Made by a program: the position numbers and the translations under genes. From Myxococcota bacterium (GTDB lineage Bacteria; Myxococcota_A; UBA796; CAJQPC01), in contig JAZAMN010000004.1 of assembly GCA_036229005.1 (NCBI GenBank), positions 64,001-128,000 on the forward strand: DNA of 64,000 nt. The letters run 5' to 3'. Under the pieces are notes generated by a model. It ran no database searches and was not told the origin of the DNA. It saw only the letters and a program-made list of their open reading frames with translations. Below, in pieces: positions 15,354 through 60,247 of this stretch. Every line of letters starts with the position of its first letter. The first letter of the stretch is position 1.

Positions 15354-16808
15354 ATGATTCAGCTCCTCGTTGTCCTCGCCTGCACCAGGAATCCTTCTGA
15401 GACGTCTGTTTTGGACGACACGTCCGAGACGGTGGGGACCGATGACACGCAGGACACCCAGTCCTCCTCCTCTCCCTCCTGGGAAGAGGTCCGACCCATC
15501 TTCCAGGGGCACTGCAGCCGCTGCCACAGCGCGAACCGGCTCTCGACCTACAAGCGGCTGGAGACGCTGGAGGACATCCGTGGGCTGCGCACCAACATCC
15601 TGGACAAGCTGGAGACGGAGCCGCCGCGGGGGCTGCGGATGCCGGTGGCGTCGAACCACTCGGGGGGCTGCACGCCCGAGCACCCGGCCATCAACGACAA
15701 GCGCTTGAGCGAGCAGGAGCTGGAGACGGTGCGGGCCTTCCTGCAGCGAGAGGACCTCCGGGATGAGGTCGACAGCTTCCCGGCCCTGGAGCCGCCGGTG
15801 GTGCCGGAGCTGGAGGATGCGGTGACGTACACCTCGTCGGAGTTCGGGGTGCTCAACGACGGCTTCCTGGAGGACCCGAACGGGGACACCGGGGGGTACA
15901 TGGACGAGAAGGACTACGACCAGCGCGAGTACGACCAGATGGAGGACGACTGGTTCTGCATCCGCTTCAACCCGGGGCGCAGCGAGGCGGGGTACCTGAC
16001 GGGCGTGCAGGCGGAGACGGCGAGCGGGCAGATCCACCTGAACGCGCAGCTTGTGATCGACACGACGGGGGCCAGCGCGGACGCTCAGGCGGCGGCAGAG
16101 GAGCGGGGGAGTGACTGGTACCGCTGCGATGCGGGGCTGGGCTTCTCGGACGCGATCCCGCTGTGGCGGACGGTGCCGGGGGGCCAGGCGGTGGAGCTGC
16201 CGGAGGCCACGGGGCTGCGCTTCGACCCGAGTTGGACCTTTGTGCTGCGGGCGGACTTCCACACGCACTACGACGCGGAGGAGTTCAACCGCCTCTCACA
16301 GAACGGCGTGATCGACCGCGAGGCGGGGACGATGACCTGGTACAATCAGGCGACCCTGCGGGCGCAATGGGCGGCGCCGGAGGACATCGAGCGGGAGCTC
16401 CAGTGGGTGATGGTGGAGCCCAGCACCAGCCAGGAGCGGGAGAGCTTCGCGGTGGTTCCGGGGGCCAGCACGTTGAGCTACCAGGCGGGGCTGCCTACGG
16501 ACGCGGAGCGCTACGCGGTGTTCTCGGCCGAGGTGGGGATGGGCAAGAACGGGCACACGGCGAGCCTTCTCGACACGGGGAGCTCGAGCTGCCTTGCCAG
16601 CAACGGGGACTTCAACCCGAATTGGATCGAGCAGGCGGTCTACGCCGAGGGCGCCGCGCCGGTGCTGGACGGCGGCAGCACGCTGGAGATCCGCTGCGAC
16701 TACGAGAACAAGAGCGAGGAGACCGTGACCTGGGGCCCCGAGGGCGAGGCCGCGGTCTGGGGGCGCAAGGAGCGCTGCAGCGGGGTGGTGTTCTTCTACG
16801 AGGAGTAG
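15354..16808 (+). CDS. Lipoprotein with a cytochrome c (CxxCH) domain and a PHM/copper type II monooxygenase-like C-terminal region
   Basis: Lipobox MIQLLVVLAC; PSWEEVRPIFQGHCSRCH...MP; DDWFCIRF; WRTVPGG..VELPEATGLRF; LEIRCDYEN...VTWG...ERC. Confidence 0.6.
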   Translation: MIQLLVVLACTRNPSETSVLDDTSETVGTDDTQDTQSSSSPSWEEVRPIFQGHCSRCHSANRLSTYKRLETLEDIRGLRTNILDKLETEPPRGLRMPVASNHSGGCTPEHPAINDKRLSEQELETVRAFLQREDLRDEVDSFPALEPPVVPELEDAVTYTSSEFGVLNDGFLEDPNGDTGGYMDEKDYDQREYDQMEDDWFCIRFNPGRSEAGYLTGVQAETASGQIHLNAQLVIDTTGASADAQAAAEERGSDWYRCDAGLGFSDAIPLWRTVPGGQAVELPEATGLRFDPSWTFVLRADFHTHYDAEEFNRLSQNGVIDREAGTMTWYNQATLRAQWAAPEDIERELQWVMVEPSTSQERESFAVVPGASTLSYQAGLPTDAERYAVFSAEVGMGKNGHTASLLDTGSSSCLASNGDFNPNWIEQAVYAEGAAPVLDGGSTLEIRCDYENKSEETVTWGPEGEAAVWGRKERCSGVVFFYEE

Positions 16809-16832
16809 GCCCCGCTGCAGGGCGCGCTGGCG

Positions 16833-17876
16833 TCAGGAGGACAGGCCCGCGACCCGGTCTGCCTCGACCCGCAGAGCGCCACCCACGCCGGGCTCGGAGT
16901 CGGAGTGGCCGTTGCCGTCCACGAACCAGAGGCGGCTGTCGACGCCCTCGGCCAGCAGGGCCTTGTGCAGGCGCCACGCGGCGGTGGGGCGGCAGACCTG
17001 GTCGCAGCGGCCGTGCACGGTGGAGACCGTCATGCCGCGCAGGCGCCGGAGCTGCTCGGGCTCCAGGAGCTGACCGGGCCGCAGGAAGCCCTCGGCGAGC
17101 ATGTAGTGCACCTCCAGGCTGGCGAAGGGGATCAGTTTGGAGGGGGTGGAGAGGGATGCGGCGATGGCCTCGGGATCCTTGTGGACCTTGGACAGCGAGA
17201 GCTCGTAGGCCACGAAGGCGCGGGCGGCGTCGTCGCGGGTGGCCGGGTCGGCCAGGAGCTGCCGGTAGCCCTCCAGGATGTCGGCGGGCGGGTTGCCTCC
17301 GAAGGCGGCGTGGTCGCGGATGAAGCCCTCGTAGGCCTCCCAGACCTCCGGGTAGTTGACCGCCGTGGAGCCGTCGCGGAAGAGGGCGTCGACCTCGTCC
17401 AGCAGGAAGGTGAAGATGCCGCGCAGGATGAGGTGGGCCATGCGCTCGGGGTGGGCCTCGGCGTAGGCCAGGGCCAGGGTGGAGCCCCAGGAGCCGCCCA
17501 GCACCAGGTGCCACTTGTCGATGCCCAGGTGGGCGCGGAGCTGCTCCAGGTCGTCCACCAGGTGGGGGGTGCTGTTGTCGGCGAGGGCGGCTTGGTAGTC
17601 GTCGGCCACGTTGGGCTGGCTCTGGCCGGCGCCTCGCTGGTCCAGCAGGATGATGCGGTAGACCTGGGGATCGAAGAACTGCCGCACGCCGGGTCGGGTG
17701 CCGCCGCCGGGGCCACCGTGCAGGAAGAGGGCGGGCTTGCCCGCGGGGTTGCCGGACTCCTCCCAGTAGAGGTGGTGCGTGGCGTCTGCGCTGCCGACCT
17801 GCAACATGCCGGTCTGGTTGGGCTCGATGGGGGGGTGGAGCTCGGTGGGGGCGGGGTCGATGCGGAGCTGGGTCAA
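16833..17876 (-). CDS. pip: Prolyl aminopeptidase (proline iminopeptidase)
   Basis: HHLYWEESGNPAG, FLHGGPGGG, DQRGAGQS, GGSWGSTLAL, LILRGIF, HGRCD, GHS. TTG start after GGAGG. Confidence 0.92.
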   Translation of the reverse strand: MTQLRIDPAPTELHPPIEPNQTGMLQVGSADATHHLYWEESGNPAGKPALFLHGGPGGGTRPGVRQFFDPQVYRIILLDQRGAGQSQPNVADDYQAALADNSTPHLVDDLEQLRAHLGIDKWHLVLGGSWGSTLALAYAEAHPERMAHLILRGIFTFLLDEVDALFRDGSTAVNYPEVWEAYEGFIRDHAAFGGNPPADILEGYRQLLADPATRDDAARAFVAYELSLSKVHKDPEAIAASLSTPSKLIPFASLEVHYMLAEGFLRPGQLLEPEQLRRLRGMTVSTVHGRCDQVCRPTAAWRLHKALLAEGVDSRLWFVDGNGHSDSEPGVGGALRVEADRVAGLSS

Positions 17877-20843: not shown

Positions 20844-22130
20844 TCACTCCAGGACGTAGCCTCCAGCCAGGATCTGCAGGACCTCCTTTGCGAAGGTCGT
20901 CAGGTCCTGGCTGCGGGTGTCCCAGAGAGCGGTCCAGGGATCGGCGTCGATGACCGCTTGCTGATCCTCCTCGGGGACATCGGTCAGGTCTGGATCGACC
21001 ATCGTGTCGCCCTTCTCCCGTACGATCCGCTCGAACTCGGGGCCATCTCCGGCCTCGAGCGCTTCGATGACCTCATCGGGCAGCTCGGTGTGCACCACGA
21101 AGGTGTTGCCGGCGTCGATGCCGCCTTCGATGAACGCGTCGTTGACGGCCTCGGTCCACTTGCTGGCCTTGAGCACTCCCAGGGCCTCTTTGCCCCGGGC
21201 GTCGGCGATGGGGAAGGTGTTGGACTTGCGGCCGATGTTCAGGTGCCGCCTGTGCTTGACGCCATCGGCGGCCTCTGGCGGCGCTTCGTCGGCCTCGTCG
21301 TCCACGCCATAGCGACCGCGCAGGTACTGAACGCTCGCTTCGAGCGCCTCCTCTTCCCGGGTCACAGAGCCCAGCTTGGTCATCTTGCTCTCGGACTTCA
21401 TGAGCTTGTTGTGGTACGCCCGCTGGGCGGGGTGGATGGTCGCCCAGAGCTCCTCAGCGGTCTTGATGTGGATGTTCTGGTTGACCAGGACGCTGACAAG
21501 GCGGCTGTCCCTGGCCTCGTCGTAGCCGGGCATGCCCTGGATCGCTTTCAGGGCGTCGGTCCGCCACTGCTTCTTGGTCTTGTGGGCCTCGCCCGTGACG
21601 TAGTCGACGTCCCCGAAGCGGATGAGCTGAACAGCCCCGGCGCTTGAGCCGCTCGAGTCGCCGCCCTGGTCCAGCAGCGACTCCGCGCTCTCACCCGCGA
21701 CGACCTTGTCTGCCACTGCGTCCGCGTGGCGCTCGTAGCTGTCCCCGGCCTGCCCTGTCGCCCCCTTGAGCTGCACGCCCTGGCGTTGTTGGACTGTGTG
21801 GGCCGCCTCATGGGCCGCGGTGTGAAGGTCTGGGGAGGCACCGAAGCCGACGCTGTTCCCGGAGGCATAGGCGTGTGCTCCCAGCGCGGTCGCGGCCTCG
21901 GCCGTGGCCCCGCCGATGCTTGCCTTGACGTCCGTGACGTCGTGGCGCCCAAAGCTCTCTTGGATCCGGTCCAGGTGTGGCAGCGGGCTGCTTGCCCCCT
22001 GGGTCCCGCGCGCTGCGATGGCGCTCGCATCGGCCAGGTGGTCGCTGCCCAGGGGGTCGCTGAGGGCGTCGGGGGCGCTGGAGGCGGTGCCAAGCTCTCG
22101 GCGCTGCACAGGGGGGCGGGTATCGAGCAT
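20844..22130 (-). CDS. DUF4157 (eCIS core domain) protein with an uncharacterised C-terminal, probably toxin-like domain
   Basis: [17 protein letters not shown]..., [34 protein letters not shown], then AVQL and an unrelated C-terminal region. Confidence 0.8.
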
Positions 22131-22213: not shown

Positions 22214-23653
22214 TCAGGGGACCACGACCTCCACGCCCCGGCTCTCCACCCCGGCCTTGTTCGCCGCGCTGATGGCCCAGTGGCCGCTGGTCAGGGGCAG
22301 GGTGTCCTCGCTGGCGGGGTGGATGGAGACCAGTGTCCAGGCGTTCCCGTCGGCTCGATAGGTGAGCCACCAGCGCGCGGTGGGATGATCCACCTCGACC
22401 CCCGCATCGGTCTGTGTGAGGGTCGGGACCCGGACCTTGGTGTCCGCCTGGTCGAACACGGCAGGGGGCAGCGCCGGGGTGGCGTAGAGCTCCTGGCTGA
22501 ACACATCGCGGATGCCATCTGTGTTCTGTACCAAGGGGTCGATGTGGTAGTAGATGGACCCCGTGCCGCCGGCCTCGCGGGTCAGGCGCACCTGCTCCCG
22601 GATCTCGTCGACGTCCCAACTGCTGCTGCTCCCGAGCTGATACAGAGCGTGTCCGGAGAAGGTGTGTCGGCCCGCTTGGGGCAGGTTGGCCCACCACTGT
22701 ACAAGGGGGCCAAACGCTTGCGCGCTCTGTGAGCTTGGCCAGTACAGTTGAGGTGCGAGGTAGTCGACCCACCCCTCTGCTTTCCACAGCACGGGGTCGG
22801 CGTAGAGGGACTCGTATTGGTCCAGGCCGCTGATGCCTTCGGGCTGGCCGGGGCGGTAGATGCCAAAGGGGCTGATGCCGAAGCGCACCTGGGGGTCGAT
22901 CTCTGCGACGGTCTGTGCGACCCGCTCCATCATCCGGTTGACGTTGTCCCGCCGCCAGTCCGCCAGGCTCATGCCGCCGCCGTAGGCCGCGTAGGTGGCG
23001 TCGTCGGGGAAGTCCGAGCCGTCGGGGTAGGGGTAGAAGTAGTCGTCAAAGTGCACGCCGTCGACGTCGTAGCGGGTGACCAGGTCCCGGATGACGGCCT
23101 CCAGGTGGTCCTGCACGGCGGGCGCGCCCGGGTCCAGCCACAGGGTGCTGCCATAGGTGTAGGCGTACTGGCTGTTGACCACGCTCTGGTGGTTGCTGGC
23201 CGCGGAGGCGCTGGCGCTGGCCTTGGCGCGGTAGGGGTTGAGCCACGCGTGCACCTCGAGCCCGCGGGCGTGGCCCTCGTCCAACACAAACTGCAGAGGG
23301 TCCCAGCCGGGGTCCTGGCCCTGGGTGCCCGTCAGGTAGCGGCTCCAGGGGTCCAGCTCGGAGGCGTAGAGGGCGTCGGCCTCGGGGCGCACCTGGAAGA
23401 ACACGGCGTTCAGCCCGCTGGCCTGGGCGGTGTCGAGCAGGGTGAGCAGCTCGGCTTGGGAGGCGCTGGCGCTCAGGCCGCTCTCGCTGGGCCAGTTGAT
23501 GTTCCAGACCGTCGCGATCCAGACGCCGCGCAGCTCCCGCTCGTGCGACACGAGGACGCCGCTCTCCTGGGCGCCGGTGTCGTCAAAGCGGGTGATGGGG
23601 TTGTCCGGCGTGGTCCAGGAGCCGGTGCAGGCGAGCAGGGCGAGGGGGAGCAA
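22214..23653 (-). CDS. GHL10 / YddW(DigH)-like glycoside hydrolase lipoprotein
   Basis: RELRGVWIATVWNINWPS, FQVRP..DALY, EVHAWLNPYRA, YDVDGVHFDDYFYPYP, VDYLAPQLYW. Lipobox LALLAC. Confidence 0.9.
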   Translation of the reverse strand: MLPLALLACTGSWTTPDNPITRFDDTGAQESGVLVSHERELRGVWIATVWNINWPSESGLSASASQAELLTLLDTAQASGLNAVFFQVRPEADALYASELDPWSRYLTGTQGQDPGWDPLQFVLDEGHARGLEVHAWLNPYRAKASASASAASNHQSVVNSQYAYTYGSTLWLDPGAPAVQDHLEAVIRDLVTRYDVDGVHFDDYFYPYPDGSDFPDDATYAAYGGGMSLADWRRDNVNRMMERVAQTVAEIDPQVRFGISPFGIYRPGQPEGISGLDQYESLYADPVLWKAEGWVDYLAPQLYWPSSQSAQAFGPLVQWWANLPQAGRHTFSGHALYQLGSSSSWDVDEIREQVRLTREAGGTGSIYYHIDPLVQNTDGIRDVFSQELYATPALPPAVFDQADTKVRVPTLTQTDAGVEVDHPTARWWLTYRADGNAWTLVSIHPASEDTLPLTSGHWAISAANKAGVESRGVEVVVP

Positions 23654-28898: not shown

Positions 28899-31157
28899 AT
28901 GCTGCTCCTGCTCTCCCTGCTCGCTTGCAAGGACGCCACCCAAGACACCGCCCCGCTGTTCGCTGACGCGGATCAGGACGGCTTCAACGCCGCGGACGAC
29001 TGCGACGACGACAACGCGTCGGTCTACCCCGGGGCCAGCGAGGTCTGCGACGGCCTGGACAACGACTGCGATGGGACGGCCGACAACGGCGCCAGCGACG
29101 CGGTGGTCTGGTACCAGGACGCCGACGGCGATGGCTTCGGCGACACAGACGCCACCCTGGAGGCCTGCACGGTGCCCGCCGGCTACTCGGCCGTGGCTGG
29201 GGACTGCGATGACAGCAGCATCTACATCAACCCCGGCGCGGTGGAGGACGACTGCACCGACCCCGTGGACTACAACTGTGATGGGTCAGTGGGCTACGCG
29301 GACGCCGACGGCGACGGAGTCCCCGCGTGTGAGGACTGCGACGACAGCGACGCGGCGCGGCTCCCCGGTGGGGTCGAGATCTGTGATGAGTTGGACAACG
29401 ACTGCGACGGGCAGGTCGACAACGACGCCAGCGACGCTTCGACCTGGTACATCGACCACGACACCGATGGCTTCGGCTCCAGCGACTACACCCTGGCCGC
29501 CTGCGCCCAGCCCTTGGGCTACGTGGACAACGACCAGGACTGCGACGACAACGCGGAGCAGGCCTTCCCCGGCGGGGTCGAGGTTTGTGATGGCTTGGAC
29601 AACGACTGCGACGGGAACATCGACCCGGCCAGCGCCTCCGACGCGGCCACCTGGTACGCGGACAACGACAGCGATGGCTTCGGCGACCCCAGCACCACAC
29701 AGATCGCCTGCGAGGAGCCCACCGGCTATTCGGCCGACGCCTCGGACTGCGACGACAGCGACGCGGACGTGAACCCGGACGGGACGGAGCTCTGCGACGG
29801 TCAGGACAACGACTGTGATGGGGACACGGATGAGGACAGCGCGGCGGACGCCAGCACCTGGTACATCGACTACGACTCCGATGGCTACGGCAGCAGCAGC
29901 TACAGCTTGAGGGGCTGCGAGGCCCCCAGCGGCTATGTGTCCACCACCACAGACTGTGATGACACCGACAGCTCGGTGAACCCTGTCGCCAGCGAGGTCT
30001 GTGATGGCGTGGACAACGACTGTGACGGGGTGACCGACCCGACCAGCGCCGTGGACGCCGGGACCTGGTACCTGGACGCGGATCTGGACGGCTACGGGGA
30101 CGCGGGCACCAGCTACACCGGCTGCGAGCAGCCCAGCGGCTACCTGGAGGACGACTCGGACTGCGATGACGCCGACAGCGCCGTGAGCCCGGACGCCGAG
30201 GAGGTCTGCGACAGCGTGGACAACAACTGTGATGGGACCGTGGACGAGGACAGCGCCACGGACGCGTCGACCTGGTACCTGGACAGCGACGGGGACGGCT
30301 ACGGCGACGCCAGCGCCACGACCGCAGCCTGCGACCAGCCCAGCGGCTACGTCTCGGATGACACGGACTGTGACGACAGCGACAGCAGCGTGGGGAACTG
30401 CTACGACTGCGACGTGACGGCGCTGGGCTCGCCCAGCTACCAGACCAGCCGGAGCCTCACCTACGGTCAGTGGATGCAGGATCCCCTGGAGACCCTGGGC
30501 AGCGGGATCGTGTGGGAGATGTCCCACTACACGGGCTCGACGGTGACGGAGTACCCCAGCCTGGCGGACTTCCAGGCGCAGACCAGCGGCACGACGACCA
30601 CGCTGCCCTACGCGTTCAACGGCACCGGCGCCACCGTGTATGACGGCTATCTGTACTACAACGCCGAGAACAGCAACACGCTGGTCGAGGTCGACCTGGC
30701 CACCGGGGCGGTGAACAGCACCCTGACCCTGACGGGCGCGGGCTACCGCAACACCTACCACTACCAGTGGGGCGGCTGGTCGGACATCGACTTCGCGGTG
30801 GACGAGAACGGCCTGTGGGTGATCTACGCGACCGCCGCAAACAGCGGCCGCATCGTGGTCTCCAGCCTGGACACCCAGCCCCTGTCGGTGGTGGACACCT
30901 GGAACACGAACTCGGACACCAAGACCAGCGTCGGCAACGCGTTCATGGTCTGTGGCGTGCTCTACGCGTCGGACCGGTACAACGGCTCCAGCACCACGCT
31001 GGACTACAAGTACGACACCGCGGACTCCACGGACAGCGCCATCAGCATCTCCTTCTCCCAGAACGGCTACAACAGCCACATGGAGTACAACCCGGCCACG
31101 GGGGAGATCCGGAGCTGGGACAACCGGCAGCTCTACACCTACGCCGTCAGCTACTGA
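28899..31157 (+). CDS. Lipoprotein with 7+ MopE-type putative metal-binding repeats and a C-terminal olfactomedin (OLF) domain
   Basis: Lipobox MLLLLSLLAC; repeats DCDD....PG..E.CDG.DNDCDG; C-terminal GQWMQDP, GTGATVYDG, WGGWSDIDFAVDENGLWVIYAT, GNAFMVCGVLY, EYNP...WDN. Confidence 0.88.
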   Translation: MLLLLSLLACKDATQDTAPLFADADQDGFNAADDCDDDNASVYPGASEVCDGLDNDCDGTADNGASDAVVWYQDADGDGFGDTDATLEACTVPAGYSAVAGDCDDSSIYINPGAVEDDCTDPVDYNCDGSVGYADADGDGVPACEDCDDSDAARLPGGVEICDELDNDCDGQVDNDASDASTWYIDHDTDGFGSSDYTLAACAQPLGYVDNDQDCDDNAEQAFPGGVEVCDGLDNDCDGNIDPASASDAATWYADNDSDGFGDPSTTQIACEEPTGYSADASDCDDSDADVNPDGTELCDGQDNDCDGDTDEDSAADASTWYIDYDSDGYGSSSYSLRGCEAPSGYVSTTTDCDDTDSSVNPVASEVCDGVDNDCDGVTDPTSAVDAGTWYLDADLDGYGDAGTSYTGCEQPSGYLEDDSDCDDADSAVSPDAEEVCDSVDNNCDGTVDEDSATDASTWYLDSDGDGYGDASATTAACDQPSGYVSDDTDCDDSDSSVGNCYDCDVTALGSPSYQTSRSLTYGQWMQDPLETLGSGIVWEMSHYTGSTVTEYPSLADFQAQTSGTTTTLPYAFNGTGATVYDGYLYYNAENSNTLVEVDLATGAVNSTLTLTGAGYRNTYHYQWGGWSDIDFAVDENGLWVIYATAANSGRIVVSSLDTQPLSVVDTWNTNSDTKTSVGNAFMVCGVLYASDRYNGSSTTLDYKYDTADSTDSAISISFSQNGYNSHMEYNPATGEIRSWDNRQLYTYAVSY

Positions 31158-35021: not shown

Positions 35022-35348
35022 GTGCCCATCTGGATCCTGACGGCCTGCCTGGGGCAACAGAAGCCCCGTGAGAGCGCGCCTTTCGAGCGTATGGCGCCGG
35101 CCTGCGAGGCGGGGGTGGTGACCCAGGTGCTGGACGCCGGGAGCTATCGCTACCTGGCCTACGAGACCCCGGCTGGAGAGGCGCGCTGGATCGCCACCCT
35201 GGCGCTGGGGGCCGAGCCCGCGCTGGGCAGCGCCCATGACTTTGTGCGCTACGGCCAGGAGCAGGGGTTCCACTCCGCTCGCCTGGACCGGAGCTTCAAC
35301 CTGCTGTTCTTCGGATTCTCCGGAGACTGTGAGACCCTGGAGGGATGA
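35022..35348 (+). CDS. Small hypothetical lipoprotein (OB-fold-like)
   Basis: GTG after GGAGAG; VPIWILTAC lipobox; GVVTQVLDAGSYRYL...WIA...FHSARLDRSF. Confidence 0.55.
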   Translation: MPIWILTACLGQQKPRESAPFERMAPACEAGVVTQVLDAGSYRYLAYETPAGEARWIATLALGAEPALGSAHDFVRYGQEQGFHSARLDRSFNLLFFGFSGDCETLEG

Positions 35349-37207: not shown

Positions 37208-37272
37208 GCCGCACCTCGCCTGCGGACCCAGTGTAGCGGGGGGAAGGGGCTATCGTGTCCGAGAGGTGAACC

Positions 37273-38184
37273 ATGTTGCTGCTGCTGGCCTGCTCTTCTG
37301 CTCCTGTCCCGCCCCCTGTCGTAGCCCCAGCGCCGGTTCTGGAGGTCGAGGCCGGTGGGTTCCAGGAGCTCATGGCCTTCTCCACCTCCGTCAAGGACAA
37401 TGACGCGACGGAGCTCTTGAAGGCGGGGCTCGCGAGCGAGGACACCAGCGGCTGGAAGCTGCGGCTCAACCACGAGCCCATCGCGCCGCTGCTGGAGCTG
37501 TCGGGGGTGCAGGCGCCGGTGCTGGCCTTCGACGAGCTGGGCCCGGATTGGAGCGGGCTGGTGGACTACGCGACCTATGCGGCGATGCGCAGTCGGCTGC
37601 TGCGCTCGGAGGGGCAGGGGGAGCAGGCGGCGGAGCTGCTGGAGGGGGCGCTGCACCTGGGGCTGCTGATGCAGTACGCGGGGGGCGGCGTGCTCAACGA
37701 GATGGTGGGCATCGCGATGCAGGAGCTGGTGCTCACGGAGCTGGCCGAGGGGGACAAGTACGGGCCCCTGGGGCTGGAGGCGGAGCAGCGCATCCGGGCG
37801 ACGCTGGTGGAGCAGAACGCGCTGCCGATGTCTTCGCCGGGGGCGGTGTACGGGGAGTGCGAGAGCCTGGAGGCGGTGCTGGACAGCCCGGAGCTGGAGG
37901 CCTTCCTCTACGACCAGGAGGAGACCGTGGCGGTGCACTGGGCGCTCTGCGCGGACGTGATCACCCAGGCGGCGCTGCCCCCCGGAGCCCGGGAGTTCGC
38001 GGACCCGCTGGCGCTGATGGACGAGCAGCTCGGCCTGTTGAATCCCATCGGCCGGGAGGTGCTGGAGCTGGGCGGGCCGGACTACCGCAGCTTCGTGGAC
38101 AAGGAGGACGCGCTGCGGGCGCGTCGGCAGGAGGTGATCCAGGCGCTGGAGGCCCGGATCCTGGCGGCGACGGGGCCGCAGTAG
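37273..38184 (+). CDS. Hypothetical lipoprotein
   Basis: GAGGTG SD, MLLLLAC lipobox, high-GC3 codon usage. Confidence 0.65.
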   Translation: MLLLLACSSAPVPPPVVAPAPVLEVEAGGFQELMAFSTSVKDNDATELLKAGLASEDTSGWKLRLNHEPIAPLLELSGVQAPVLAFDELGPDWSGLVDYATYAAMRSRLLRSEGQGEQAAELLEGALHLGLLMQYAGGGVLNEMVGIAMQELVLTELAEGDKYGPLGLEAEQRIRATLVEQNALPMSSPGAVYGECESLEAVLDSPELEAFLYDQEETVAVHWALCADVITQAALPPGAREFADPLALMDEQLGLLNPIGREVLELGGPDYRSFVDKEDALRARRQEVIQALEARILAATGPQ

Positions 38185-39441: not shown

Positions 39442-39493
39442 GCCGGGGGCTTATCGTGGTGCTCCCAGACAGGACGGCCCCTTGAGCGACTTC

Positions 39494-40303: not shown

Positions 40304-40315
40304 GGTCCTCTGGGT

Positions 40316-40582
40316 GGCTACGCCCCCTGAATGAGCACTCCCCCGTGGCTACGGCCTCCCAGTGAGCGCCTCTTTGAGGCTACGGGGACTCAGTGAGCGG
40401 GGGGCGGACCGGAACGGTGCTCGGTTCGACAGAATTGGGTCTGATTTTGCTCAGGTGTGGACCAGTACGGGGTCGGGGTGTTGCCTGAGCCCAAAGCCGC
40501 AACAATGCTCCGCCGATCGGTGGCCCAAGCGCTCACTGAGTGCCCGTAGCCTCTCAGGACCGCTCATTCAGGCGCGCTAGCC
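40316..40582. repeat. Inverted pair of 31-bp-period repeat arrays (3 left, 2 right units; core GGCTACG-N7-ARTGAGC)
   Basis: Units at 40316, 40347, 40378; reverse-complement units at 40531-40551 and 40562-40582. The innermost pair matches 20 of 21 bases. Confidence 0.8.
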
Positions 40583-40713
40583 TCCGCCGGCGGCTGTGTC
40601 TGAGGCTCTCGCATGGCGCGGGCGCAACAGTTCCTCGCCTGCGGAGGGCAGTGTTCCAGAATCTGACCGGAGCTTCCCAGCCCAAGGCGGTGAGCCGGGA
40701 ATAGAGTGGTGCC

Positions 40714-41727: not shown

Positions 41728-41760
41728 GGCCGCGCGCCACAGAGCAGGTAGGATGCGGCC

Positions 41761-42534
41761 ATGATCTGGCTGCTCCTGTCCTGCTCCACCCCCGCCGACC
41801 CCAGCCCCACGTCCGCGTGTGAGGGGCTCTACGGGGACCCCAACGAGAACACCGGCCTCAGCGACGCGGAGTGCTGGCCCAGCGTGGGGGAGGGGGAGGG
41901 GGACTGGTCACCTCGCCGATGGGACGATGCGTCACTGCGTGCGCTCGAGCGCTGGTCTCTGGAGGTGGACCCAGAGCCCCTGAGCACCGATCCCTACCTC
42001 TCCGACCCGCCGGCGGCCGAGGGCGTGGTCTGCGCTCTGAGCTTCGGCGAGGACACCTACAGCATGGCCAGCTACCCGAGCGTCGCGGCGGCCCATGAGG
42101 CGGGGGCGGTGATCACCCACGGGGGCGCGTGCGGGCTGTGCTCCAGCCTGGAGGACCTGGCGGTGTACGCGGGCACGCCCGACCTGACCCAGCCGGTGCG
42201 GCAGTGCGGCCTGCAGTCGATGGCCGACGGCGTGGAGGCGGGGCAGGCCTGCCTGGAGGGGCTGGGCTTCACCCCGGCCTGCGCGAGCATCTGGGCGTAC
42301 AACGTGGAGCACACCCGGCAGGAGTGCCAGGACATCTGCCTGTCGCTGCTCTCGGACCCCTACCACCAGGAGGACGGGAGCCTGAACGCCTGCCTGCAGT
42401 GCGACGAGGACGAGTCGGGGCCTGTGTTCAAGGCGGTCGCGGGGCGCACGCGGCGGAACTCGGGGCTGGCCAGCGCGCTGTGCCGACCCTGTGACACAGT
42501 GTGGAGGATCGACCACGACTATCCGGAGCTCTGA
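41761..42534 (+). CDS. Cys-rich lipoprotein of unknown function
   Basis: MIWLLLSC lipobox; HGGACGLCS, CLEGLGFT..CA.IW, CLQCDEDESGP.F..VAGRTRRNSG. Confidence 0.7.
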   Translation: MIWLLLSCSTPADPSPTSACEGLYGDPNENTGLSDAECWPSVGEGEGDWSPRRWDDASLRALERWSLEVDPEPLSTDPYLSDPPAAEGVVCALSFGEDTYSMASYPSVAAAHEAGAVITHGGACGLCSSLEDLAVYAGTPDLTQPVRQCGLQSMADGVEAGQACLEGLGFTPACASIWAYNVEHTRQECQDICLSLLSDPYHQEDGSLNACLQCDEDESGPVFKAVAGRTRRNSGLASALCRPCDTVWRIDHDYPEL

Positions 42535-42609
42535 GGGGAGGGGGATCGGGGTCCTCAAAAACCTATACAAAGCTTGCACAAGCTGTGTTCGGGGTGTACA
42601 ACCCTCAGC

Positions 42610-45120
42610 ATGCTCCCCCTGCTGCTCAGCGCTGCATTCGCCCAGGAGGCCCCCGCCGATCGGAGCCGCCTGCCCAGCGTGGCCGTCGCGGTCCAGCCGG
42701 TGCATCCGGCCCAGGCGCTGGAGCAGGGGATCTCCTCGCAGGTGCTGCTGGCGCTGCAGATCGACGCCACTGGGCGGGTGCTGGCGGCGGAGGTCGTGGA
42801 GTCCGGGGGCCCTGACTTCGACGACGCGGCCGTGCAGGCGCTGCTGGCCACCACCTTTGTGCCCGCGCTGGACGCCCAGGGGGAGCCGGCGGCTGCGGCG
42901 ATCTACTACCGGGTGGTGTTCGACGTGCAGGCCGCCCCGCCGCTGAGGATGCAGGGGCAGGCCACGCTGGGGCAGCTCCCCTTGAGCGGCGTGCGGATCC
43001 GCGGGGTGGGGCCGGAGGGCGCGCAGGCGCGGGCGGTCACGGACTCGGAGGGCCGCTACGCGCTGGTGGGCCTGGAGCCGGGCCCCTGGGTGCTGTTGGT
43101 CGAGGCCGAGGGTATGGAGCCCATCGTGCGCCAGGTGGAGATCGACGCCGAGTCGGTGGTGGCGCTGGATCTGGCCTTTCAGCCGCAGCTCGCCGCGGAG
43201 CTGGGGGACGAGCCCGGCGAGGTGCTGGTGGTGCAAGCGGCCCGGCTGACCCCGGACATCACGGAGCGGCGGCTCAGCGCCGAGGAGATCGCCTACCTGC
43301 CGGGCAGCTCGGGGGACGTGGTCAAGGCGGTCCAGAACCTGCCGGGCATCGCGCGGGCGCCCCTGGGCATCGGGCAGCTCATCGTGCGCGGGAACGACGC
43401 GGGGGACACGACCTACACGCTGGACGGCTCGCCGATCCCGCTGGTGTTCCACTTCGCGGGGCTGACCTCGGTGGTGCCGGGCCAAGCGCTGGACGAGGTC
43501 GCCTACCTGCCCGGCAACTACGGCGTGCGCTACGGCCGCACCCTGGGCGGCGTGGTGGACCTGCGCACGACCCGGCAGCTCCCGCTGGAGCCCAACCGCA
43601 GCATCAGCGTGGACCTGTACCAGTCCGCCGCGTTCATCCAGCAGCCCATCGGGGACCGCGCCGCCGTGACCGTGGCCGCCCGGCGCTCCTACGCCGACGC
43701 CGTGCTCGGCCCGCTGCTGAACAACGTGGACGGCCTCAAGGTCCAGGCCCCCCGCTACTACGACGCCCAGCTCCGCTTCCAGTACCAGGGGGACGAGGGC
43801 GACTGGGACGTGCTGCTCTTCGCCTCCGACGACCGCTTCCGCTTCCTGGGCCTGAGCGAGGAGGAGGAGGACGAGCTCACCCTGGCGGCCTTCGCGGACC
43901 AGTTCCAGCGGGTGCGGGTGCGCCACCTGTCCACCGTGCGCGGCTGGGAGCTGGAGAACACCGTGGCCTTCGGGCCCGAGAAGCGCTTCTTCGAGTTCGG
44001 CGAGGACTCCGACGCGCTGGAGGAGCGGCTCACCGTCTCCGCCCGCCAGGAGTGGGTGCGCCCGCTGACCCCCGACCGCAGCCTGGGCGCGCGCGTGGGC
44101 CTGGATCTCTTGGGCGGCCAGGAGGGCTTCAACTTCTACGTCCAGGACTTCGGCCCCCGGGAGAAGGACAGCGCCCGCTTCGTCGCCCCCGCGCTCTACG
44201 GGGAGCTGAGCTGGCGCGTGGGCCCGCTGACCCTCATCCCCGGCCTGCGCGCGGACCTGCTGGCCTACGACTCCGGCTACACCGCGACCGCGATCGACCC
44301 CCGGATCGCCGCCCGCGTGCGCATCAGCGACGGCGCCGCCCTCAAGGCCAGCTACGGCCGCTACTCCGCCTTCCCCACCCTGCGCGAGGTCTCCGGGCGC
44401 GCCGACGGGAACCCCGAGCTGGGCCCCCAGCAGTCTCTGCAGGCTTCAGTGGGTTGGGAGCAGCAGCTCCCCTGGGACCTCACCCTCGAGACCACCTTGT
44501 TCTACAACCAGCTCAGCCAGCTCGTGGTCGGCCGCGAGGACAGGCTGGAGTTCTTCACCGGCCCGCCCCCCGTGGGCCCCTTCGACACGGACGCCTACGC
44601 CAACGACGGCGTGGGCCTGGCCTGCGGCGCCGAGCTCATGCTGCGCTACGACGGCCCCAAGACCGTGGGCCTGCTCACCGGCACCTTCTCCCACAGCCAG
44701 CGCCAGGACCGCCCGGACGAGGAGGTCGAGCTCTTCGCCTTCGACCAGCCCATCGTGCTCAACGCCCTGGTCTCCCGCCAGCTCCCCCGCGGTTGGCGCC
44801 TGGGCGCCCGCTACCGCTTCGGCTCGGGCAACCCCTACACCCCCGTGGTCAACCGCTACTACGACGCCAGCTTCCGGGCCTACATCCCCGTCTATGGCGA
44901 GCGCAGCAGCGGCCGGCTCCCCTACTTCACCAGCCTGGATCTGCGGGTGGACAAGGAGTTCACCCTGCGCACGGTTCAGATGACTGCCTTCCTGGAGCTG
45001 CAGAACGCCACCAACCGCGCGAACGTCGAGGTCGTGGGCTGGAACGCCGACTACTCCGCCCAGGACAACATCACCGGCTACCCCACGCTGCCGGTCTTTG
45101 GCTTCAAGGGGGCCTGGTGA
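42610..45120 (+). CDS. TonB-dependent receptor with N-terminal TonB_C and carboxypeptidase-regulatory-like domains
   Basis: IDATGRV..AEVVES...FDDAAVQA; GDVVKAVQNLPG; FHFAG; YGRTLGGVV; LDLRVDK; terminal aromatic W. Confidence 0.88.
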   Translation: MLPLLLSAAFAQEAPADRSRLPSVAVAVQPVHPAQALEQGISSQVLLALQIDATGRVLAAEVVESGGPDFDDAAVQALLATTFVPALDAQGEPAAAAIYYRVVFDVQAAPPLRMQGQATLGQLPLSGVRIRGVGPEGAQARAVTDSEGRYALVGLEPGPWVLLVEAEGMEPIVRQVEIDAESVVALDLAFQPQLAAELGDEPGEVLVVQAARLTPDITERRLSAEEIAYLPGSSGDVVKAVQNLPGIARAPLGIGQLIVRGNDAGDTTYTLDGSPIPLVFHFAGLTSVVPGQALDEVAYLPGNYGVRYGRTLGGVVDLRTTRQLPLEPNRSISVDLYQSAAFIQQPIGDRAAVTVAARRSYADAVLGPLLNNVDGLKVQAPRYYDAQLRFQYQGDEGDWDVLLFASDDRFRFLGLSEEEEDELTLAAFADQFQRVRVRHLSTVRGWELENTVAFGPEKRFFEFGEDSDALEERLTVSARQEWVRPLTPDRSLGARVGLDLLGGQEGFNFYVQDFGPREKDSARFVAPALYGELSWRVGPLTLIPGLRADLLAYDSGYTATAIDPRIAARVRISDGAALKASYGRYSAFPTLREVSGRADGNPELGPQQSLQASVGWEQQLPWDLTLETTLFYNQLSQLVVGREDRLEFFTGPPPVGPFDTDAYANDGVGLACGAELMLRYDGPKTVGLLTGTFSHSQRQDRPDEEVELFAFDQPIVLNALVSRQLPRGWRLGARYRFGSGNPYTPVVNRYYDASFRAYIPVYGERSSGRLPYFTSLDLRVDKEFTLRTVQMTAFLELQNATNRANVEVVGWNADYSAQDNITGYPTLPVFGFKGAW

Positions 45121-45911
45121 TGCTGCTGTGGCTGCTGGCCTGTGGCGGGATGGGCGACCCCGCGACCACCCTGCGGGACGTGCAGGTTCTGACCATCGCG
45201 TCGGACCCGGGCGTGCTGGGGCCCGGCTCGGTGGGGACCCTGGACACCTTCGTCGCGGATCCGGTGGGCGAGGGGATCGAGCTGCTCCAGTGGCCCTGCA
45301 CCCCAACGTCTGACGGGGAGTGCGCCGAGCACGCCGCCATCCTGGACGGCACCAGCGAGGACTGGCTGGGCCTGACCCGCAGCGACCAGACCACCCTGTC
45401 CGTGGACATCGCCACCCCCGCTGCGCTGCAGCCCCTGCTGGGCCCCGATCCGCTGCCCCTCTGGTCGGTGTGGACGTTGGCCTGTGCCCCCGGCCTGTGC
45501 CCCCTGATGGAGGCCCAAGGGGACACCCTGGTGGAGGGGCTCGCGGACCCCACGGAGCTGCTGGTGGACCTGCCCATCGACGGCGTGAGCCTCACGCGCG
45601 GCTGGGTGTACGGCGCCGCGGAGTCCTCGCCGGCACCCGGGGTGTCGTGCAGTGCGCCGGAGACCGCAGCCCCAGAGGGTGAGGTCCTGGTGTCGTGCAC
45701 CCTGGATGCCCTCCTCGACGACGACTCCGCGCTCTACGGCTACGCGACGGCCGGCGGCTGGGAGGCCCCCTTCGTGGAGACGGGCCTGAGCGGGCCGGTG
45801 GAGTACGCCTGGTACGCCCCGGAGGACCCCGGGACCGTGACGCTCTACGTGGTGGTGGTCGATGCGCGGGGCGGGCAGGGGATCTGGAGCGGCAGCCTGC
45901 GCGTCGAGTAG
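45120..45911 (+). CDS. Lipoprotein coupled to the TonB-dependent receptor
   Basis: TGATG overlap, MLLWLLAC lipobox, VQVLTIASDP, VVVDARGG. Confidence 0.75.
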   Translation: MLLWLLACGGMGDPATTLRDVQVLTIASDPGVLGPGSVGTLDTFVADPVGEGIELLQWPCTPTSDGECAEHAAILDGTSEDWLGLTRSDQTTLSVDIATPAALQPLLGPDPLPLWSVWTLACAPGLCPLMEAQGDTLVEGLADPTELLVDLPIDGVSLTRGWVYGAAESSPAPGVSCSAPETAAPEGEVLVSCTLDALLDDDSALYGYATAGGWEAPFVETGLSGPVEYAWYAPEDPGTVTLYVVVVDARGGQGIWSGSLRVE

Positions 45912-45915
45912 GGGC

Positions 45916-47655
45916 TCAGGGCCAGGGGAGGGTGGCGCTGAGGGTGGTGCCCACGCCGCGCTCGGACTCCAGGTGGAGCACACCGCCCAGCTCGTGGATC
46001 GCCGCGCCCAGGGCCGCCATGCCGACGCCGCGGCCGGAGGTGTGGGTGATCTCCTCGCGGGTGGAGAAGCCGTCGCTGAGCAGCAGGGCCTCCAGCTCCT
46101 CGGGGGTCTCCGCCGGCAGCCCGTGGGCCTGGGCCTTGGTCCGCACGCGCTCCCAGTCCACGCCGGCGCCGTCGTCGCGTACCCAGATCCGCAGGGCGCC
46201 GGGCTGCCGCGCGACCCCCAGCTCCAGGGTGGGGGGGCCCTTGTCGCCGCGATCCTGGGGCAGCTCGATGCCGTGGTCGACGGCGTTTCGGATGGCGTGG
46301 GACCAGGCGCTCCAGAAGCGCCCCAGGCGGGCGGGGTCGACGCGCAGGCTGTCGCCCTGGGTCTGGAGCTTCAGCGCGCCCTTGCCCAGGCGGTGGGCCA
46401 GGCTCTGGGCCTGCCTTCCCATGCGCTCCAGGCGGCTGCGCAGCGGCTCGTGCTCCCAGGTGTCCAGCAGGGCCAGCAGGGTGTCCGCGGAGGCGCCGGA
46501 CTGGAGCTGGGCGCGCAGGGCCTGGACGTCGGCCGGGGAGACCTGGAGGCGGCGTTGGCTGGAGTTGACCAGCGGCTGCACGCGCTCGCTCAGGCGCTCC
46601 AGGTGGGTGAGGGCGTCGCTGAGCTCCTGGGCGCTGGGGGCCTCGCCGCTGGCGTCGATGAAGCTCTCCAGTTCGTGCAGGTGGTGGGCCAGCACCCCGC
46701 AGCCCATCAGCCCGGCGCTGCCCTTGAGGGTGTGCAGGTCCCGCCGCAGGGTGGGCAGGTCGGGCGGTGCCTGGATGGCGGCGCTGAGGCGCTCGGCCTC
46801 GTCCAGGAAGTCCAGCACGCCGCTGCGGTCGCTCAGGACGTGGTCGACCAGGGCCAGCACCTCCTCCTGGAGGGCCTTGGCGGCGCGGGCCTGCTCGGCG
46901 TCGGTCACGTCGGTCACGACGACCAGCATGCGCTCCCAGTCCTCCCCGCCGATGGGCTGCCAGGCGAACTCCAGGCTGCGGCCGCGCACCTGGGCGCGCT
47001 TGGGGAGCTGCTCCAGCGCGAGCTCCAGGGGCAGCCAGCCGTCGCAGAGGTTCTCCCAGCCCAGCTCCAGCGCGACGCTGAACGCGGGGTCCTGGTCGCT
47101 GAGCCACTCGGGCAGGCGGGTGTCCTCGCTGGGGACCCCCAGCAGCGCATCGGTGGAGACGGACCGGGCTCCGGTGATCTGGGCGGATCGGTCCAGGGTG
47201 AACAGCCCCTGCTCCACCTTGCTCAGGATGCGGGACATCTCCTGGTGGGAGCGGGCCAGGTGGCGCTCGGCCTTCCGCTGCTCGCTGACGTCCATCAGGT
47301 AGGTGTAGAGCACGGGGCGGCCGCTGATGGGGATCGGGACCATCGAGGCCACGAAGTCGCCGACGCTGCCGTCAAAGCGCCGCACCCGCAGGGGGTACTC
47401 GTGCACGTAGCCTTGCTCCCGGATCTTCATGAGCAGGGCCGTCCGGTCCTCGGGGTGCTCATAGAAGTCCAGGGCGGCCTCGCCCTCCATGTTCTCGCCG
47501 CCGCCAAAGACCTGATCCGTCGCGTCGTTGGTGAAGATGACGTGGCTGGTGCTCAGGTCGGTCAGCAGGACGGGGATCGGCGCCTTCACCGCCAGGGTGC
47601 GGTACAGCAGCAGCTCGTCGGGCTCGGGGGGCAGGGCGCGGGCGGCGTTGGACAT
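45916..47655 (-). CDS. PAS-HPt-HATPase CheA-like histidine kinase without a CheW domain
   Basis: PAS (RRFDGS), HPt LHTLKGSA, N-box HAIRNAVDHGIE, DDGAG, GFST, SGRGVGM. Ends right after the ATPase domain. Confidence 0.85.
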   Translation of the reverse strand: MSNAARALPPEPDELLLYRTLAVKAPIPVLLTDLSTSHVIFTNDATDQVFGGGENMEGEAALDFYEHPEDRTALLMKIREQGYVHEYPLRVRRFDGSVGDFVASMVPIPISGRPVLYTYLMDVSEQRKAERHLARSHQEMSRILSKVEQGLFTLDRSAQITGARSVSTDALLGVPSEDTRLPEWLSDQDPAFSVALELGWENLCDGWLPLELALEQLPKRAQVRGRSLEFAWQPIGGEDWERMLVVVTDVTDAEQARAAKALQEEVLALVDHVLSDRSGVLDFLDEAERLSAAIQAPPDLPTLRRDLHTLKGSAGLMGCGVLAHHLHELESFIDASGEAPSAQELSDALTHLERLSERVQPLVNSSQRRLQVSPADVQALRAQLQSGASADTLLALLDTWEHEPLRSRLERMGRQAQSLAHRLGKGALKLQTQGDSLRVDPARLGRFWSAWSHAIRNAVDHGIELPQDRGDKGPPTLELGVARQPGALRIWVRDDGAGVDWERVRTKAQAHGLPAETPEELEALLLSDGFSTREEITHTSGRGVGMAALGAAIHELGGVLHLESERGVGTTLSATLPWP

Positions 47656-57318: not shown

Positions 57319-57346
57319 GATCCGGGCGTTGACCTTGGAGTCTTGG

Positions 57347-58699: not shown

Positions 58700-58715
58700 T
58701 CCGGCAATGTAGGGC

Positions 58716-59351
58716 TCAGAGCCAGAGGGTGCACCCCACCCCGAAGAACATCGGGGCGGTCCGGCTCCCGCCGCGCCAGGGGGTGTCCAGTCCGGCCCGG
58801 GCGCTGAGCTCCACGCCGTCGCTGACCCGGCGCGCGCCCTGCACGGCCACGGACGCGAGGCCCCCGCTGGGCCCGTACCAGGCGGCGCTGGCGTCCGGGT
58901 GGTCCCGCACCCAGGCCTCCTGCGGGCGGAGCTGGCTGACCAGGTTGGCCGAGCCGCCCAGCTCCAGGGCCACAAAGCCCCGCTCCCACCGCGCCCCGGC
59001 GATGGCCTGGGCGTGCAGCGAGAGGGTCTCCCCGGCGATCAGCGTCCCCGACAGGTGCTGCTCCCGAGCGGCCACGCGCCCGTCCACAAAGAAGCGCTCG
59101 CCCCGGGCGATGGGGGTGCGCGCGGACAGCTCCAGGCGGTGGTCGGCGCCCTCCAGCAGGAACACGGGCACCGTGAGGGTGGCGCCCAGGCTCAGGGGCC
59201 GGCTGGGCAGGCTGCGGGTGTGCAGGACGCCCGCGCTGGCGGTGGCCAGCGGCTCGCCGCCGACGCTGAGCAGGGCGCGGGTTCCGGGGTCGGTGGGCGG
59301 AAGGGTGACCTCGACGGCGGAGGCCATTGCGACCAGGGCGAGCCACATCAC
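58716..59351 (-). CDS. Hypothetical secreted protein (beta-strand rich)
   Basis: Signal MMWLALVAMASA; coupled to the upstream hydrolase stop. Confidence 0.6.
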   Translation of the reverse strand: MMWLALVAMASAVEVTLPPTDPGTRALLSVGGEPLATASAGVLHTRSLPSRPLSLGATLTVPVFLLEGADHRLELSARTPIARGERFFVDGRVAAREQHLSGTLIAGETLSLHAQAIAGARWERGFVALELGGSANLVSQLRPQEAWVRDHPDASAAWYGPSGGLASVAVQGARRVSDGVELSARAGLDTPWRGGSRTAPMFFGVGCTLWL

Positions 59352-60247
59352 AGCACCCCCAGGAGGTGAGCCACGACGGCGTCGGCGGCCACCCAGACCG
59401 CATCGTGCCCGACCCCCTCCAGCGTGAGGACCTGCGGGTCCGAGAAGGGGGCGGCCTGCTCGGCGCGATAGTCGGCGTCCATGATCTCGTTGTCGTCGCC
59501 CCAGATCAGGTGGACGGGGGCGGGCAGCGTGTCCAGGCCCTCGCGGAAGTCCCAGCCGCTGGCCTGCGCGGCGCCGATGGTGTCGACGTAGCCCTGGTAG
59601 CCCATGCGCACGAAGGGCATGGGGTCGTCGGGAGAGAAGTTGTAGCCGGGGAGCTGGTCGCTCATGAGCTGGGCGAAGTTGAGGTCCAGGTGGGCGTGCC
59701 GGTCCGGGGTCAGCATCTGCTCCTGCCAGAACAGGGAGTTGAGGTGATCGGAGCGCATGTCGATCTCGGTCAACCCCATGGTCATGAACAGGGCGTCCGT
59801 GAACGGGCCGGGATCGAGCAGCACCAGCGAGGACACCGTGTCCGGGTGGGCCTGGGCGCTGGCGACGGCGAGCTGACCACCCCAGGAGTGGCCGATCAGC
59901 ACGGCCTGGCCATCGGGGCTGTACGCCGCGATGAGGTCCTGGAGGTCCTGCACGTGGAGCTCGGCGTCCACGCTGCCGGCGTCGTGGCGCTCGGACAGGC
60001 CGGCCCCGCGCTGGTCGTAGATCAGGACCTGGAAGCCGTGCTCGCTCAGGGCGCCCAGGCGCGCCATCCCGAACTGGTCCATGCCGGGACCGCCGTGGAG
60101 CAGCACGACCAGCGGGTCGGCGGGGTCGCCCAGGAGCTGGCCGTGGAGGGTGGTGTCGGCGAGGGTCAGGCGGGGGAGGGTGGGGTCCTCTGCGACGGTG
60201 GGCGGGACCAGGGTCTGGGTGCTTGTGCAGGCCATCAGGAGCAGCAT
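59348..60247 (-). CDS. Alpha/beta hydrolase lipoprotein (proline iminopeptidase-like)
   Basis: MLLLMAC lipobox; LLHGGPG, YDQRGAG.S, GHSWGG, IWGDD, GVGH. Confidence 0.85.
   Translation of the reverse strand: MLLLMACTSTQTLVPPTVAEDPTLPRLTLADTTLHGQLLGDPADPLVVLLHGGPGMDQFGMARLGALSEHGFQVLIYDQRGAGLSERHDAGSVDAELHVQDLQDLIAAYSPDGQAVLIGHSWGGQLAVASAQAHPDTVSSLVLLDPGPFTDALFMTMGLTEIDMRSDHLNSLFWQEQMLTPDRHAHLDLNFAQLMSDQLPGYNFSPDDPMPFVRMGYQGYVDTIGAAQASGWDFREGLDTLPAPVHLIWGDDNEIMDADYRAEQAAPFSDPQVLTLEGVGHDAVWVAADAVVAHLLGVL

Follow-up and report, generated by a model that had tools for sequence, protein, structure and literature searches.

Lipoproteins of the Escherichia coli Lpp type carry a Sec/signal peptidase II (Sec/SPII) signal composed of an n-region, an h-region, and a lipobox, [LV][ASTVI][GAS]C (cited passages of PMC8048626), and the Sec/signal peptidase I (SPase I) signal is described as a tripartite n-h-c sequence of 20 to 30 residues (cited passages of PMC5427057). 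The DNA studied here, referred to below as the window, is a stretch of 64,000 nucleotides (contig JAZAMN010000004.1, positions 64,001 to 128,000) from the Myxococcota bacterium assembly GCA_036229005.1, in which eleven proteins begin with very short, hydrophobic leaders without Lys or Arg (K/R). The assembly is 6.4 Mb in length, with 70% GC and 94% completeness, and the closest matches of the window proteins are mostly from Myxococcota. We consider it reasonably probable that the uncharged, Leu-rich leaders of 6 to 13 residues in this genome are working minimal Sec signals, processed either by Lgt and LspA, through lipid modification of the Cys and removal of the leader, or by SPase I at A-x-A.

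The leaders are a genome-wide feature. Genes were called with a self-trained hexamer caller (5,398 genes, 90% coding), and a pattern consisting of a start codon, an uncharged hydrophobic run, and [AGS]-Cys, with the Cys at positions 6 to 13 and near the coding onset, was counted. It occurs in 637 of 5,235 genes (about one gene in eight), far above chance (8.1 genes when gene interiors are taken as the background, 4.9 when non-gene frames are). The count is a floor, as the window leader at 37273 fell outside its search range, and it includes at least one false positive, a carbamoyltransferase. The Cys is at position 6 in 2 leaders, 7 in 10, 8 in 142, 9 in 146, 10 in 156, 11 in 104, 12 in 45, and 13 in 32, so that 548 of the 637 have it at positions 8 to 11, and there is a sharp floor at Cys 8.

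If the true starts lay upstream and restored a basic n-region, the pattern would be a start-codon artefact. Some upstream in-frame ATG, GTG, or TTG is available for 310 of the 637 leaders, a longer start with K/R is possible for 130, and within the window this reading applies to the leader at 60247 and perhaps to that at 35022 (both listed below). It is already refuted, however, for the forced set: 327 leaders have no ATG, GTG, or TTG between the upstream stop and the short start, 189 of these also lack an upstream CTG or ATH, and in 119 cases the upstream stop lies within 15 codons of the Cys. Of the 637 starts, 122 overlap the preceding stop (ATGA or TGATG), and the DNA upstream of short starts scores as noncoding (mean coding score about -1.1), the score becoming positive exactly at the short start. 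A Shine-Dalgarno (SD) sequence, scored as GGAG or GAGG 3 to 12 bases before the start (the 16S rRNA, and with it the anti-SD, is missing from the assembly), is present at 349 of the 637 short starts (54.8%), compared with 18.7% for the 321 alternative starts upstream and 11.5% for 1,370 ATGs inside genes. Counting forced, SD-preceded, and coupled starts, 522 of the leaders have at least one start-fixing feature. We regard the artefact as an extremely unlikely account of the trait.

The eleven window leaders, each recovered where the preliminary description had placed it and each inside a frame called as a gene by the hexamer caller, are as follows.

15354..15383, plus strand: MIQLLVVLAC, Cys 10; 484-aa protein whose single CXXCH heme motif lies at residue 54.
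23627..23653, minus strand: (TTG)LPLALLAC, Cys 9; 479-aa GHL10/YddW-type glycoside hydrolase; start forced by an in-frame TAG, GGAGG upstream.
28899..28928, plus strand: MLLLLSLLAC, Cys 10; 752-aa protein combining PF11617 repeats with an olfactomedin domain; GAGG, spacer 6.
35022..35048, plus strand: (GTG)PIWILTAC, Cys 9; 108-aa protein.
37273..37293, plus strand: MLLLLAC, Cys 7; 303-aa protein; TGA in frame two codons upstream; GAGG, spacer 6.
41761..41784, plus strand: MIWLLLSC, Cys 8; 257-aa Cys-rich protein of an unnamed, Myxococcota-enriched family; start forced by an in-frame TAG.
45120..45143, plus strand: MLLWLLAC, Cys 8; 263-aa protein, translationally coupled behind a TonB-dependent receptor gene.
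60227..60247, minus strand: MLLLMAC, Cys 7; 299-aa alpha/beta hydrolase.
2983..3024, minus strand: MPLLLALLSAPALA, 14 aa, uncharged, SPase I type; 420-aa Ig-like protein with a MYXO-CTERM-like tail; GAGG, spacer 6.
42610..42642, plus strand: MLPLLLSAAFA, 11 aa, uncharged, SPase I type; 836-aa TonB-dependent outer-membrane receptor.
59316..59351, minus strand: (GTG)MWLALVAMASA, 12 aa, uncharged, SPase I type; 211-aa protein, GTGA-coupled to the 60247 gene.

A correction to the preliminary description concerns three start codons, which are TTG at 23653 and GTG at 35022 and 59351. The in-frame stops that it had reported are present (TGA at 37267-69, TAG at 41749-51, and a TAG seven codons before 23653) and fix the starts at 37273, 41761, and 23653, with 37273 the shortest forced example among the window leaders. 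Coupling fixes 45120 and 59351; the reported TGATG overlap of the former is real, its partner being the stop of the TonB-receptor gene, and a GTG one codon upstream is an equally good alternative start. GAGG favours 28899 and 3024. The RNA data (one run with 6% of words, giving five short contigs over 36500-46000) were uninformative on starts and expression and were not used.

Because the count pattern forbids K/R, starts were also called without the motif, using only SD and coupling, for 3,113 genes. Among the lipobox leaders, those with the Cys at 6 to 14 then comprise 392 uncharged sequences and 6 with K/R, against 11 uncharged and 103 with K/R for the Cys at 15 to 26, and a gap at 13 to 15 separates the two classes. 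K/R falls in the free positions of 6 of 393 short leaders, where 121 would be expected from the background K/R frequency. The short leaders lack both the positively charged n-region and the membrane-spanning length (Cys at about 15 to 25 or later) of a Sec/SPII signal. They keep the -3, -1, and +1 residues of the lipobox, with Leu at -3 in 414 of 637; the -1 and +1 residues are set by the search pattern, which is about 80 times as frequent at gene starts as in the background. The hydrophobic core before the lipobox has a mean Kyte-Doolittle (KD) value of 2.81 in short and 2.31 in canonical leaders, a difference partly imposed by the search pattern, and the shorter the leader, the more hydrophobic it is per residue (KD of 3.13 at Cys 8 and 2.16 at Cys 13). 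This trade-off, together with the floor, is as expected if a hydrophobicity threshold were under selection. The Cys is followed by a polar Pro/Asp/Glu/Thr linker, as in the canonical class. About 100 to 140 canonical K/R lipoprotein leaders coexist with the short ones in the same genome, and the short uncharged form accounts for four in five of the predicted lipoproteins and for about 12% of the genes.

A parallel class of SPase I type, defined by pattern, consists of uncharged A-x-A leaders in 138 genes, where 8.4 are expected. Among confidently started genes, there are 79 short uncharged A-x-A leaders (9 to 19 residues, mode 11 to 13) and 74 canonical ones. The 79 have the A-x-A site after a hydrophobic core and lack the basic n-region and the 18 to 30 residues of a Sec/SPase I signal. 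The leaders are without Arg, and no twin-arginine (Tat) motif is present in them.

The proteins that carry the short leaders look like exported proteins. No other membrane segment is predicted in 627 of the 637, and, like Sec/SPII substrates, the cargo looks extracytoplasmic with no other anchor. A Pfam scan covered 138 of them, a nonrandom sample taken from the 20 stretches of 20 kb in which they lie most densely and trimmed to 520 residues, and gave matches in 64. Among these are 7 cytochrome c-type proteins, 2 solute-binding proteins, PCuAC, MbnP, sulfatases, an S41 peptidase, and 10 proteins with PF11617; a single match, the false-positive carbamoyltransferase, is plainly cytoplasmic. Short leaders are found on 35 of 84 CXXCH genes, 15 of them with forced starts, and CcmF-type heme-attachment (cytochrome c assembly) genes are present in the genome. 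Heme c attachment and solute binding occur outside the cytoplasm. Because the cargo includes c-type cytochromes and solute-binding proteins, export is strongly implied, and we infer that the short-leader proteins very probably cross the inner membrane. It is also likely that the Cys is diacylglycerylated and the leader removed.

Comparison with canonical-leader proteins (48 of 115 scanned in the same way, 20 with matches) shows several families common to both classes, among them PF11617, FG-GAP, lectin C, and cytochrome c; cargo-specific sorting by leader class was considered and rejected, as the same domain families occur in both. The 23653 protein was compared with 120 GHL10 homologues: canonical K/R lipobox leaders of at least 15 residues occur in 67, K/R leaders of at most 14 in 12, short uncharged leaders in 21, and long uncharged ones in 2, and for 18 none was found; as read from these sequences, the Cys-linker-domain layout is the same and the leader is shortened. 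Pal keeps a canonical K/R leader in the genomes with a readable start, including that of the window, and a peptidyl-prolyl isomerase (PPIase) and an HlyD-type protein also have canonical leaders. Pal of the window's family has Thr at the -1 position of the lipobox (A-T-C). BamD is usually a lipoprotein. In 28 of 30 genomes of the window's order, it has an A-x-A leader of SPase I type without a lipobox Cys, for which reason it was unusable as a test lipoprotein; in genomes G001 and G011, the BamD leader is free of K/R, and there is no upstream start that would add any.

The distribution of the trait was probed with a fixed DNA pattern for an uncharged leader with the Cys at 10; 61 of its 67 matches in the window's genome are at gene starts. 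Among 121 genomes of the order, 80 have at least 9 matches, 58 have at least 20, and 17 have at most 3, and the maximum is 8 among 173 genomes that belong to the same class or phylum but not to the order. Among the genomes searched, the trait is confined to one order and is patchy within it; a Cys-8 pattern is patchier still (0 to 114 matches). A canonical-type pattern has matches in all 121 order genomes (13 to 175), including 25 to 71 in the 17 genomes poor in short leaders (low genomes), so these do not lack lipoproteins. When genes were called on 400 kb taken from four low genomes, few lipoboxes came up, mostly of the K/R type, with one or two short. On a SecY plus Ffh tree of 24 genomes, the pattern of high and low states requires 4 changes, of which 3 or more are forced by well-supported branches; gain and loss of the trait are indistinguishable on the sequences in this tree. 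Across 185,579 genomes, a strict SD-plus-MLLLLLAC pattern found 11 loci, which fall in 8 records with titles naming Myxococcota, Alphaproteobacteria, an uncultured proteobacterium, or Enterobacteriaceae/Klebsiella. Five of these genomes were probed and have 28 to 49 Cys-10 matches (32 to 33 in those titled Enterobacteriaceae and Klebsiella). The odd titles are probably submitters' labels, and the records mislabelled metagenome bins of the order's kind. The minimal grammar proposed in the preliminary description for both lipoprotein-type and SPase I-type leaders is thus upheld by enrichment (637 against about 8 and 138 against 8.4). As a lineage-wide property, it holds for one order among the genomes searched; it does not replace the canonical grammar, given the 100 to 140 coexisting K/R leaders, the canonical Pal, and some genera of the order with almost no short leaders.

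The export and lipoprotein pathway of the window's genome is complete and ordinary. SecA, SecY, Ffh, FtsY, YidC, Lnt, and LolA are encoded once each, together with two strong LepB matches, two LspA, four Lgt, Fmt, and two Def, and Lgt, LspA, and Lnt have the conserved active-site motifs expected of a Sec/SPII system. Loss of SRP (the signal recognition particle), Fmt, or Def as a cause of the trait was ruled out, as all are present. Across 27 genomes, the copy number of LspA, Lgt, YidC, or Ffh does not match the trait. Some features of the lipoprotein enzymes were recorded in passing. Two of the Lgt paralogues (one of the paralogues lies at G000:C52:307977-308744) have a GRLGC-x-x-x-HDH signature, a cluster on contig C8 has the order lspA, membrane-protein gene, lspA, lgt, and, when set against solved structures, an LspA (L002:1480-2052) has an insertion of about 12 to 13 residues in the stretch that separates its two catalytic Asp motifs. 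The insertion is common to the class outgroups and is therefore not trait specific.

The preliminary description had suggested that SecA, SecY, Lgt, or LspA might be divergent. For SecA, Lgt, and LspA this was not borne out, as no residue or copy number tracks the trait; SecY provides one order-wide candidate. Of 22 order genomes, 15 have Ala and 7 have Ser at the residue of SecY transmembrane segment 5 (TM5) that corresponds to E. coli I187, and the residue is Ile in all three class outgroups and in all 120 of the nearest outside homologues (equivalence was counted by hand on the 5abb alignment; the window genome's SecY locus is G000:C11:149122-153141). F192 is changed to Thr in 19 of 22 and T168 to Ser or Ala, and I191, I278, and I408 are intact. 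I187 is a member of the isoleucine pore ring (cited passages of PMC2171872), and most prl mutations, which pass signal-defective proteins, map to the ring, gate, and plug (cited passages of PMC3164448). The order thus has a nonconservative change at a pore-ring site, of the kind expected for a prl-type SecY, and this replacement could make the channel permissive.

How might such leaders work? One possibility, which we rate at about even, is that the dense poly-Leu core alone targets the protein, most likely cotranslationally: the core would engage SRP and then SecYEG/YidC during translation, a route with precedent for two E. coli lipoproteins (cited passages of PMC8048626). More tentatively, and with some doubt, we suggest that the order-wide Ile-to-Ala/Ser change in the pore ring may lower the gating barrier across the whole order as prl alleles do, permitting short signals without imposing them. 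An order-wide looser ring would fit a trait that is confined to the order yet repeatedly gained or lost inside it. The leader is too short for a bilayer-spanning helix; at 7 to 10 residues (about 10 to 15 Å), it might fill the outer half of the bilayer, near the sites of Lgt, which face the periplasm (cited passages of PMC4728403), and of LspA, which acts in that half (cited passages of PMC8048626). SRP binding can block deformylation (PMC5454389), and the buried N terminus, perhaps with its formyl-Met kept, would then stay uncharged; we hold this placement to be doubtful. The boldest combination of these steps, likewise doubtful, is that a whole order has a natural prl-like translocon (I187 to Ala/Ser plus TM4/TM5 changes) and that hundreds of genes per genome repeatedly, and independently of each other, shrank their signals to half-membrane tags of formyl-Met, five Leu, and Ala-Cys, processed by Lgt and LspA without a spanning or charged part.

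Other explanations accept the short leaders and differ on what they do. Export could be posttranslational, through SecA, and guided mostly by the mature chain, with the leader only triggering the channel and presenting the lipobox. SecA is present and ordinary, a permissive SecY ring would fit equally well, and a core of 5 to 7 hydrophobic residues is short for SRP recognition; nevertheless, the steep length-hydrophobicity trade-off and the poly-Leu composition point to selection on leader hydrophobicity, and Ffh is kept in all 23 order genomes searched, so we judge this route unlikely. The short leaders could instead form a sorting code of their own, recognized by a dedicated paralogue (one of the four Lgt or one of the two LspA) or another factor and directing accessory surface lipoproteins along a distinct route. 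The two discrete classes, with their gap and different -2 residues, would suit such a code, as would the canonical leaders of Pal, the PPIase, and the HlyD-type protein and the codon use of the classes, in which the top decile of ribosomal-like genes holds 12.2% of canonical and 6.3% of short-leader genes. All four Lgt are divergent, with R143- and R239-type residues in each and His at position 103 in none. Most Lgt of low and outgroup genomes likewise lack this His, however, and H103 is replaced by Y, W, or F in other bacteria (cited passages of PMC13251419); copy-number ranges are the same in high, low, and outgroup genomes (Lgt 2 to 6, LspA 1 to 3), the same domain families occur in both classes, and orthologue leaders form a continuum of 17, 13, 11, and 9 residues. 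A dedicated code is thus decidedly unlikely. Finally, the leader might stay on as an uncleaved N-terminal anchor, or the Cys might receive a non-Lgt modification without being diacylglycerylated. Lipidation is deduced here from sequence, Leu at -2 departs from the standard lipobox, and a 7-residue helix cannot span the membrane as Lgt/LspA substrate models assume. Against these points, Ala/Gly/Ser-Cys and the polar linker mirror the canonical class, homologues have ordinary lipoboxes at the same place, and the parallel A-x-A class occurs on outer-membrane and soluble proteins that need cleavage; we consider a retained anchor highly unlikely.

We therefore return to minimal Sec signals as the preferred explanation, against which the following observations weigh. 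All of the support for export and lipidation is at the level of predicted features. Four of the eleven window starts are ambiguous: 15354 has an ATG 6 codons upstream (with a leader uncharged from either start); 35022 has an ATG 6 codons upstream that would give 15 residues with Arg, although GGAG at spacer 5 favours the short start; 42610 has a TTG 12 codons upstream and no SD; and at 60247 a start from the ATG 13 codons upstream would make the leader 20 residues long, with two Arg, and ordinary in appearance. Some short leaders in databases look like late start calls (two Nannocystis GHL10 entries). The lipobox -2 residue is Leu in 428 of 637 short leaders, compared with 24 of 115 canonical ones, and lies outside the standard [ASTVI]; early mature regions do not exceed those of the canonical class in acidity, and no charge compensation is visible. 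Hikita and Mizushima reportedly engineered, in 1992, poly-Leu signal peptides without positive charge in which hydrophobicity replaces the n-region charge, but there charge is traded for a longer core, whereas here the core is shorter. No column of the Ffh M domain, SecA (28 genomes compared), YidC, LspA, or Lgt splits high from low genomes (best 0.64 to 0.71), and none in SecY separates them within the order; G144 is absent from the first SecY alignment and G078 and G040 from the Ffh one. Since no Ffh M-domain residue tracks the trait, the SRP step draws on precedent. Low genomes (0 to 4 short-leader matches) also carry Ala or Ser at the I187 equivalent, the change following the order boundary and not the variation inside the order. 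Ala or Ser is also found in 19 of 148 distant SecY representatives, among which no other ring site varies as much (Ile 82, Val 23, Met 13, Ala 12, Thr 9, Ser 7, other 2), and I187 is absent from the prl positions listed in the cited passages of PMC2171872.

Several other features of the window deserve mention. A low-GC (62%) island at 3956-12971 encodes type I restriction-modification hsdM/S/R, a YgjP-like metallopeptidase, and an AbiEii-like AAA ATPase. The minus-strand gene at 1762-3024 encodes the protein with the MYXO-CTERM-like tail (Gly-Cys, a hydrophobic run, and an Arg cluster); by a rough pattern, 53 genes of the genome have such tails. An eCIS-core domain gene lies at 20847-22130 and an aminoglycoside 3-N-acetyltransferase-family gene at 28043-28762, both on the minus strand.

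A search for short, minimal, ultrashort, atypical, or uncharged signals in the literature (mostly nonsubscription, without supplements) found no description of this trait. The main text of a Myxococcota-rich secretome survey, as far as represented in its cited passages, is silent on short signals and lipoproteins (PMC11495043), and the trait is not described in the passages concerned of PMC9360617, PMC9287161, PMC13068155, PMC5427057, PMC8082313, PMC2585858, and PMC4907695. Patterns of the G+LPPv3 type demand a Lys or Arg (cited passages of PMC13068155). Patterns of this sort would miss the leaders by definition, and the lipoproteomes of these bacteria are therefore probably undercounted. The textbook rule of a tripartite, basic, membrane-spanning signal, which is built into prediction patterns, is broken on both length and charge, and hundreds of natural sequences define a lower limit, a floor of 7 residues before the Cys. 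High and low genomes are matched inside one order, and the canonical set persists in the same cell. If the tags export and lipid-anchor proteins, as is likely, the known minimum for a bacterial export signal would be redrawn.

The system that the lipoprotein-type leaders most resemble is Sec/SPII of the Lpp type, with which they share a hydrophobic run to [AGS]-Cys, Leu at -3, a polar linker, extracytoplasmic cargo, and the encoded Lgt, LspA, Lnt, and LolA. They differ from it in being short, in having neither n-region nor basic residue, in having Leu at -2 in two thirds of cases, and in the position of the Cys, at 6 to 13 (mode 8 to 10) instead of 15 to 25 as in the genome's own canonical class; the figure given for a Gram-positive lipoprotein set is 21.4 ± 2.7 (cited passages of PMC13068155). 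The A-x-A leaders resemble Sec/SPase I signals in having a hydrophobic core that ends in A-x-A and in being carried by outer-membrane and soluble proteins, and are unlike them in being uncharged and 9 to 19 residues long. With prlA SecY and sec61 prl alleles (cited passages of PMC3164448 and PMC2171872), the order shares a small residue in place of a pore-ring Ile, in a lineage using signals that would be defective elsewhere; unlike those alleles, the I187 change is natural, order-wide, and outside the prl sites listed in those passages, and its permissive phenotype is a prediction. Unlike the design of Hikita and Mizushima, the leaders described here are natural and proteome-wide. The starts, the two classes, the distribution, the predicted extracytoplasmic cargo, and the complete ordinary pathway can be read from the genomes, and to these the steps of the mechanism add what may happen at the membrane. 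Overall, the leaders appear to act like Sec/SPII and Sec/SPase I signals but fail two of their defining features, charge and length.

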